Shown in pieces: positions 5,920 to 6,417 of a DNA stretch of 64,000 nt (its first letter is position 1; every line of letters begins with the position of its first letter). The notes under the pieces are model-generated. The model ran no database searches. It had not been told where the DNA came from and worked only from the letters and a program-made list of their open reading frames with translations. The position numbers and the translations under genes were made by a program. Source of the stretch: Nitrososphaeraceae archaeon (GTDB taxonomy: Archaea; Thermoproteota; Nitrososphaeria; Nitrososphaerales; Nitrososphaeraceae); the NCBI GenBank assembly GCA_036376955.1, contig DASUZI010000254.1, positions 1,792-65,791 of the forward strand. The letters run 5' to 3'.

Positions 5920-6417
5920 TTATCCTCCAGTCATTCGCGTGAATTTGTTTATTTTCTTTGATGTGAGTATATAATCTAAGTTTGCCAATGCAACATTAGC
6001 TGACTTTTTGACTTCCTCGCTTGGATCACTTAATGCAGTAACCAATACAGGTCTAGCAGCCTCCGAACCTATCACTCCCAATGCAACAGCAGCTTCATGT
6101 CGAACAAAAATACTCGGATCATTTTCAACTGCATAACTTAATGTCTTGATGCCACTTGTAAATCCTAATTGTCCAAGTGAAAAAGCGGCCTCATGTCTTA
6201 CCAAATCATCTCCATCCTCCATTAATGCTTTGCTTATGGTTTCTACTGCCTGTTCACCGCCAATATCAGCAAGAATACAAATAGATCTAGTCCTAATGAC
6301 AGGATCAGGATGAAACGATAATGTGCTAAAAAATTGAATATTGTTATTGTTGAATTCAGTTTCCATTTCCCTTATTAACTCTAACCTATCATAATTTTCA
6401 TTATAATTAATCTTCAA
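5920..6417 (-). CDS. HEAT-repeat protein resembling one half of deoxyhypusine hydroxylase
   Basis: LVRHEAAFSLGQLG and FVRHEAAVALGVIG repeats (H75-E76, H107-E108). Confidence 0.75.
   Translation of the reverse strand: MKINYNENYDRLELIREMETEFNNNNIQFFSTLSFHPDPVIRTRSICILADIGGEQAVETISKALMEDGDDLVRHEAAFSLGQLGFTSGIKTLSYAVENDPSIFVRHEAAVALGVIGSEAARPVLVTALSDPSEEVKKSANVALANLDYILTSKKINKFTRMTGG

Follow-up and report, generated by a model that had tools for sequence, protein, structure and literature searches.

Hypusine on the translation factor IF5A is among the most specific protein modifications known, and deoxyhypusine hydroxylase (DOHH), the Lia1 protein of yeast, has a human representative of known structure (PDB 4D4Z/4D50). 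The iron ligands of DOHH are H56, H89, E90, H207, H240, and E241, and the conserved glycine of its LGQ motif, located seven residues past the first histidine, contributes to the binding of the substrate (PMC9117371). Among archaea, Sulfolobus and other Crenarchaea contain hypusine, and no archaeal DOHH orthologue is known (PMC5178350, 2016; PMC6105217, 2018; PMC8153317, 2021), in line with an earlier note on the DNA considered here, made from the sequence alone, which had stated that an archaeal DOHH is not established. Our own literature search on archaeal or Asgard DOHH and on thaumarchaeal PBS-lyase-type proteins returned nothing relevant. The DNA in question is a 64,000-nucleotide stretch of a Nitrososphaeraceae archaeon (contig DASUZI010000254.1), referred to as the window in the following, and the gene of interest in it encodes a HEAT-repeat protein, P0001, whose assignment as a half-size homologue of DOHH is supported by sequence comparison. 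All of the computational tests that could be applied speak for the reading given in the earlier note. We judge it modestly probable that P0001 is a homodimeric, di-iron DOHH whose substrate in Nitrososphaerota is the deoxyhypusine of aIF5A, and we put it forward as the first well-supported candidate for the missing step of archaeal hypusine synthesis.

Homology to DOHH

The open reading frame (ORF) and its translation agree with the description in the earlier note of a 165-residue HEAT protein with two His-Glu (HE) motifs, the distance from H75 to H107 being 32 residues; the translation also contains IRTRSICILADIGGEQAVETISKAL. The proposal that such a protein equals one half of DOHH is borne out by alignments that place HE on HE in each half. 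In BLASTP comparison with the flatworm DOHH P0123, P0001 is 42% identical to the C-half (101 residues aligned) and 35% identical to the N-half (100 residues aligned), and in repeat 4 VALANLDY falls on VALDIADY. The profile–profile comparison of the P0001 family with 18 DOHHs (hhalign) gives a probability of 99.7% and an E-value of 1.5e-25 over 123 columns, and human DOHH (4d4z) is matched by P0001 at E 1.6e-22 in a search of the PDB. The counterparts of the DOHH iron ligands and of the LGQ glycine are H75, H107, E108, and G82, all of which are invariant. Whole-sequence searches of the PDB and of a library of 1.84 billion representatives were dominated by long multi-repeat HEAT proteins and designed alphaReps, because the scores of the repeats add up. 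Such searches could not separate DOHH from generic HEAT on their own, and a motif census, the profile–profile comparison, and a tree were therefore used.

In a family alignment of 39 diverse members, with identities down to 26%, the residues H75, E76, H107, and E108 are invariant, as are E19, R42, D68, A77, G82, L93, V105, R106, L113, L125, D131, V136, and A140, and Q83, which follows the invariant G82, is conserved in at least 90%. The HE motifs lie exactly 32 residues apart in 119 of 120 close relatives, the remaining one having a 3-residue deletion and retaining both motifs. Conservation of HE in the orthologues, on which the earlier note had made its reading depend, is thus found both in the diverse set (invariant) and in the close one (120/120).

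The same note had also worried that generic HEAT repeats share the sequence motif in which the His-Glu pairs are embedded. The two residues that follow V-R in a generic HEAT_PBS repeat are variable and lie at the surface, and of 1766 HEAT_PBS-type repeat cores, taken as a control from 146 long HEAT proteins of the generic kind, only 6 (0.34%) have HE there. Adjacent HE repeats among the generic cores were found solely within one recently amplified array, P0224. The count of (K/R)HE is 0–1 in generic HEAT proteins, 2–4 in the listed eukaryotic DOHHs, and 2 in the P0001 family, and the four motifs of DOHH form two pairs, with 33 residues between the members of each. The HE pair of P0001 is well beyond chance.

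A quick maximum-likelihood tree was calculated for 80 four-repeat units over 121 columns, using hand-picked generic HEAT windows as the outgroup, a join at which the tool warned that long branches meet. All HE-HE units fall into one starred clade (95*), apart from the generic HEAT windows. The N and C halves of DOHH group together (90), and the half-size family forms a group of its own (90) outside this eukaryotic pair, which agrees with the suggestion of the earlier note that P0001 resembles the pre-duplication ancestor. In each of the prokaryotic fusions discussed below, the two halves pair with each other (P0137, 82; P0290, 90; P0300, 95*). Such pairing implies that a unit acting in twos was duplicated independently more than once; as an indication drawn from few columns, the tree fits four or more separate tandem duplications. 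A bolder proposal, which we hold only tentatively and consider short of probable, is that the half-size protein is both the true DOHH of Nitrososphaerota and the living pre-duplication form; full hypusination would then have existed in aerobic archaea by way of a homodimeric enzyme, and the eight-repeat DOHH of eukaryotes would be one of at least four independent fusions.

Dimer Model and Natural Fusions

That a homodimer could rebuild the site with four HE motifs, as had been suggested from the sequence, is consistent with a high-confidence dimer model in which these motifs are predicted to lie in the interface. The homodimer modelled with two iron ions has ipSAE values of 0.92, 0.93, and 0.92 in three runs, whereas the highest value among three controls is 0.34. 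At least 98% of the contacts are common to the runs, and the pLDDT of the partner is 93. When the tool was calibrated, 20 of 30 proteins with structures solved as one-chain pairs attained this mark, as did 1 of 23 solved as single chains, counts that apply only roughly to P0001, which was modelled with a custom alignment and a riding ligand. The predicted interface includes residues 75–76, 104, and 107 of both copies, with F104 contacting residues 104 and 107 of the partner, and both F104 and H107 are located on the predicted two-fold axis. The N-terminal helix (residues 11–23) and the C-terminal tail (residues 159–165) of one copy are further predicted to meet repeats 1 and 4 of the other; the helix would pack on repeat 4 and on the tail of the partner, and the tail would dock near R44/C47/E19 of the partner.

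The architecture predicted for the dimer has natural counterparts in single chains. P0137 is a tandem fusion of 363 residues with four HE motifs, each half being 46–50% identical to P0001, and P0290 and P0300 are further fusions with four HE motifs. The model of P0137, which was folded from an alignment without any eukaryotic DOHH, has a pLDDT of 94.2, a pTM of 0.92, and 19 helices. It superposes on human DOHH (4D4Z) with TM-scores of 0.72/0.79, compared with 0.3–0.4 for all other HEAT structures, and VIA-align gives Z 30.9 with a root-mean-square deviation (rmsd) of 3.6 Å over 267 residues for human DOHH, the next match having Z 17.6 and an rmsd of 14.5 Å. The DOHH-like fold of P0137 provides independent support for the pairing of half units.

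Several other candidates were considered in the search for fusions. Two metagenome matches to P0137 were rejected, since they are ordinary half-size Nitrosopumilaceae genes, and a 322-residue protein with two matches in genome G270 turned out to be of the generic HEAT kind and to lack the HE motifs. No relatives of P0137 were found in viral contigs. A different kind of fusion is P0356, a bacterial-looking metagenome protein of 392 residues in which an HE-HE half shares the chain with a domain of the class III nucleotidyl-cyclase type (Guanylate_cyc, 22.0 bits at a Pfam cut-off of 21.9). Class III nucleotidyl cyclases act as dimers, and the HE-HE unit in P0356 may therefore be a dimerising, possibly metal-dependent, sensor input module.

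Gene Features and Annotation

The features of the P0001 gene are collected in Table 1. The TTG start is backed by orthologues having the same start point, one of which (P0020) uses ATG, and by the orthologue alignment, in which P0001 is conserved from residue 9 on. The Pfam scan of P0001 gives only the generic HEAT_2 (6.1e-19) and HEAT_PBS. Several orthologues have been labelled automatically as "deoxyhypusine monooxygenase" by the JGI pipeline, and no paper discussing the orthologues so labelled was found in our literature search.

The clade-specific tail FTRMTGG is kept in all 120 close relatives and in the Caldarchaeum-type orthologues. In other clades, the C-termini are APRP, MPHP, or KPKIRL instead. 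The tail ends in Gly-Gly, a terminus that is unusual outside ubiquitin folds.

Table 1. Features of the P0001 gene, with positions in the window and residue numbers of the protein.
Feature	Residues	Window position	Strand	Sequence	Remarks
Half-size DOHH-like HEAT protein gene P0001	165 aa	5920..6417	(-)		ORF including stop codon
Stop codon		5920-5922	(-)		orthologues match in length
Start codon		6415-6417	(-)	TTG	orthologues match in start
N-terminal helix	9-30	6328..6393	(-)	YDRLELIREMETEFNNNNIQFF	E19 invariant; interface residues 11-23
HEAT repeat 1	41-54	6256..6297	(-)	IRTRSICILADIGG	R42 invariant
HEAT repeat 2, first His-Glu motif	72-85	6163..6204	(-)	LVRHEAAFSLGQLG	
H75 codon	75	6193-6195	(-)		in HEAT repeat 2
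E76 codon	76	6190-6192	(-)		in HEAT repeat 2
HEAT repeat 3, second His-Glu motif	104-117	6067..6108	(-)	FVRHEAAVALGVIG	
H107 codon	107	6097-6099	(-)		in HEAT repeat 3
E108 codon	108	6094-6096	(-)		in HEAT repeat 3
HEAT repeat 4	133-149	5971..6021	(-)	SEEVKKSANVALANLDY	from alignment to DOHH
C-terminal tail, clade-specific	159-165	5923..5943	(-)	FTRMTGG	

Distribution

Five archaeal families of the window's order are ammonia oxidisers, as judged by named relatives such as Nitrososphaera gargensis, and in these the hidden Markov model (HMM) of the P0001 family finds one full-length copy in 27/30, 142/145, 7/7, 1/1, and 3/3 genomes, with full-length matches at E 1e-56 to 1e-91. The tallies include two unpublished genomes (G132 and G231, archaeal family f2), on which no conclusion rests. 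Elsewhere in the class, the family is found in 4 of the 9 genomes of f6 and in the one genome of f8, and the HMM finds no member in the sampled genomes of f7 and f9–f14. In a sample of 301 genomes of the phylum, 8 of the 11 genomes of f23 (Candidatus Caldarchaeum) are matched, seven of them full-length, and full-length orthologues are also present in two genomes of f42; the remaining weak matches are generic HEAT proteins. Ammonia oxidisers and Caldarchaeum are known as aerobes, and the distribution in aerobic lineages suits an O2-dependent enzyme, as the earlier note had expected of a DOHH.

Gene Neighborhoods

The host genome has an aIF5A gene (with the motif KPGKHGSAK) and two genes of deoxyhypusine synthase (DHS). 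Linkage of P0001 relatives to genes of this pathway is found repeatedly. On the contig of the fusion P0137, the genes for a DS protein (1.3e-100), a pyridoxal-phosphate (PLP) decarboxylase, a CN_hydrolase of the N-carbamoylputrescine-amidase type, and a PAD_porph-type agmatine deiminase precede P0137 on one strand, and the cluster is flanked by two IF5A-like_N genes with hypusine-loop-like KxGK(H/Q)G motifs. In G425 (f23), two paired DHS paralogues lie 75 bp from the orthologue in divergent orientation, in G051 (f6) the orthologue and aIF5A converge, the two genes being 280 bp apart, and the family member P0301 is convergent with spermidine synthase. About fourteen distinct types of neighbourhood were inspected, among which chance alone would produce about 0.1 adjacencies of this kind, a rough estimate from about six pathway genes and about 1800 genes per genome, made without a formal test. 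The neighbourhoods of P0290, P0300, and P0295 contain no hypusine-pathway gene, and tblastn searches of the window and of the other fetched loci for DHS, aIF5A, spermidine synthase, and polyamine genes showed no further linkage.

The cluster of P0137 (L037, Logan SRR21363124_14, 2857–9902) also contains a TauD/GBBH-type dioxygenase gene, and both of its IF5A-like proteins have IF5A-like_N only, together with long acidic N-terminal extensions. The DHS of this contig looks to be of archaeal type, and some neighbours, namely a cyclic-nucleotide (cNMP)-binding membrane/HEAT protein, are bacterial-looking. The cluster has the look of a complete hypusination module that resides outside the hosts known so far. 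As to the DHS genes, contig C297 of the host genome (L003, 1498–3618) has two divergent, adjacent DS-family paralogues with about 27% identity, and a like pair is seen in a Caldarchaeum-related genome (L018, 1982–3922); homospermidine synthase is one possibility for the second paralogue.

In the window itself, P0001 is surrounded by a gene of the PurP type, a short ORF, and the gene of a response regulator. Genes of the 5'-methylthioadenosine-phosphorylase type (PNP_UDP_1) and of the IF-2B family lie 2–3 kb away, and IF-2B-family, adenine-phosphoribosyltransferase-type, and PNP_UDP_1 genes occupy positions 2247–3299 (-) and 8118–9465 (+), all less than 3 kb from P0001. The IF-2B family includes methylthioribose-1-phosphate isomerase, and these salvage-type genes together could recycle the by-product of spermidine synthesis. 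The context of P0001 has at most a faint flavour of polyamine or methionine salvage. At 1564–2163 (-), the window also encodes a 199-residue protein in which FeS_assembly_P and PqqD-like domains are combined, an uncommon pairing.

In marine Nitrosopumilaceae-type loci (L042, 834–1493; L043, 452–1108), the orthologue is divergently paired with a conserved thioredoxin-fold protein having a CPGC motif, a possible redox partner. The two half-size Nitrosopumilaceae genes matched by P0137 in metagenomes adjoin a thioredoxin-like gene and that of ribosomal protein L15e.

Proposed Mechanism and Alternatives

In the proposed mechanism, each P0001 chain would form four HEAT hairpins, with the His-Glu motifs in repeats 2 and 3, and two chains would join head-to-tail on a two-fold axis, aided by the N-terminal helix and the FTRMTGG tail. 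Once paired, the chains would gather four HE motifs in one cleft at the centre, which is how they lie in the eight-repeat DOHH of eukaryotes (EC 1.14.99.29). H75, H107, and E108 of each chain would hold one iron, giving a non-haem di-iron centre that activates O2. DHS would build deoxyhypusine on the conserved lysine of aIF5A, and the candidate hydroxylase would then act on C2 of deoxyhypusine to yield hypusine. For P0001, we infer that iron is bound, that the chemistry involves O2, and what the substrate is.

A number of observations weigh against this assignment. Glutamate at H+4 of the second motif is invariant in DOHH (E113 and E271; VRHEA.EALG in 18 DOHHs), whereas the P0001 family has Val, Ile, or Ala at this position; the earlier note had already pointed to the Val that replaces the Glu of HExxE in P0001, and this reading is correct. 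The HE spacing is 32 residues in the family and 33 in DOHH, designed alphaRep proteins score above DOHH in whole-sequence searches, and no DOHH-specific model matches P0001 in the Pfam and NCBIfam scans, which give generic HEAT only. The homodimer model may draw on the predictor's memory of DOHH 4D4Z. The N-terminus of P0137 resembles a signal peptide, and the DS-family gene next to it might encode a homospermidine synthase. P0001 is not adjacent to DHS or aIF5A in the window, nor are its orthologues in most genomes, and the four pathway-linked neighbourhoods, from four lineages, represent a minority. The ammonia-oxidiser genus g6 is without a P0001-type gene, which is thus dispensable there, and the other sampled families of Thermoproteota have no orthologue (e.g., 0/25, 0/20, 0/18, and 0/16), Sulfolobales being assumed to be among them. 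Finally, our literature search found no publication that joins hypusine with Thaumarchaeota. Because the P0001 family was not found in these other Thermoproteota families, it cannot be the general archaeal hydroxylase, e.g., that responsible for the hypusine of Sulfolobus, and the hydroxylase of Sulfolobales is to be sought elsewhere.

Some of these observations would fit a DOHH-type di-iron homodimer that acts on another substrate, either as an oxygenase of free polyamine or of another modified lysine, or as a sensor of O2 or iron. The missing H+4 Glu and the dispensability in g6 are in favor of this alternative, as are the polyamine enzymes, rather than aIF5A, among several of the neighbours and the junction of an HE-HE half to a cyclase-type domain in P0356, which resembles the input of a dimeric sensor. 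However, the direct linkage to aIF5A in G051 and the IF5A-like genes beside P0137 point back to the translation factor, no neighbourhood suggests an alternative substrate, and the H+7 Gly and the LGQ motif, implicated in the binding of deoxyhypusine, are conserved. We consider another substrate unlikely, although to be taken seriously. A more distant alternative is that P0001 is a non-catalytic HEAT adaptor, in which the His-Glu pairs serve to bind a protein (aIF5A, DHS, or other) or a structural metal. Small HEAT proteins are commonly scaffolds, the Pfam/NCBIfam class of P0001 is generic HEAT, and HE sits at the variable, ligand-contacting positions of HEAT_PBS/alphaRep repeats. On the other hand, the pair is invariant, at the DOHH spacing, across deep divergence, the tree separates the family from generic HEAT windows and groups it, with starred support, with the DOHH halves, the motifs of the two chains are opposite one another in the predicted interface rather than lining an open groove, and the distribution tracks aerobic lineages, all of which make an adaptor distinctly unlikely in our view.

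It is also conceivable that P0001 pairs with a half-size paralogue, P0402 (contig C59, L002:1306-1797:+), in a heterodimer mimicking the unequal halves of DOHH, an arrangement that would be compatible with the assignment of P0001 as a half-size DOHH. P0402 has 164 residues and two HE motifs with a spacing of 32 (IVKHEAAFQIG and LVRHEAIEALG), and unlike P0001 it retains the DOHH-type Glu at H+4. Its occurrence is patchy, though, the matches listed at the strength of an orthologue (covering most of the length at E 1e-34 or better) coming from about 50 of 251 genomes. The P0001 family stands alone in most ammonia oxidisers and in all Caldarchaeum-type genomes, and the P0402 type stands alone in two genomes of g6. 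Since each type is found alone in some genomes, the two can work separately, and the homodimer model of P0001 is already confident; we regard the heterodimer as the least likely of these alternatives.

Significance

The presence of a conserved candidate in cultivable ammonia oxidisers makes the question of the archaeal hydroxylase accessible to standard biochemistry and mass spectrometry. If the assignment of P0001 as a homodimeric DOHH is true, the maturation of a translation factor in globally abundant nitrifiers would gain an O2-dependent step. It would also show how a pseudo-symmetric di-iron enzyme came out of a homodimer, the several independent fusions serving as replicates made by nature.

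Comparison with Known Systems

A bifunctional DHS has been put forward in the case of Trichomonas vaginalis and also considered for archaea, as cited in PMC6105217 and PMC8153317. In the form in which these articles relate it, the proposal concerns the same missing step, i.e., the hydroxylation of deoxyhypusine without a recognised DOHH orthologue, and calls for no separate hydroxylase, whereas Nitrososphaerota have a separate DOHH-like gene. A bifunctional DHS and a half-size DOHH-like protein could both hold, in different lineages.

The generic PBS-lyase HEAT proteins (CpcE/F, NblB, YibA, and alphaRep) share the repeat type of P0001, VR..AA.ALG.IG...A...L. They are open solenoids, with TM-scores of 0.3–0.4 and rmsd values of 12–16 Å to the model of the fused P0137, and they have variable residues where the P0001 family has the invariant His-Glu. 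Generic HEAT_PBS proteins are characterized by variable residues after V-R and by an open solenoid without a dyad; the P0001 family has invariant HE at these positions and a modelled dyad architecture unlike that of alphaRep.

The closest likeness is to DOHH, with which P0001 shares the HEAT fold, four hairpins per half, and the His-Glu motifs in hairpins 2 and 3. H75-E76/H107-E108 of P0001 stand beside H56-E57/H89-E90 and H207-E208/H240-E241 of the human enzyme, in the common contexts HE....LGQ and VRHE..ALG.IG. HEAT repeat 1 is the counterpart of the R(F/Y)RA(L/M)F.LR repeat of DOHH, and HEAT repeat 4, with the shared VAL...Y, that of the V(R/V)ESC.VALD..EY repeat. DOHH is eukaryotic and has no counterpart of the N-terminal helix (EME..F) and the C-terminal tail (TGG) of P0001, whose family is archaeal. 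P0001 is half as long (165 vs about 300 residues), and whereas DOHH has eight hairpins in one chain, the P0001 chain has four, so that the dyad which DOHH owes to internal duplication would here need a homodimer.

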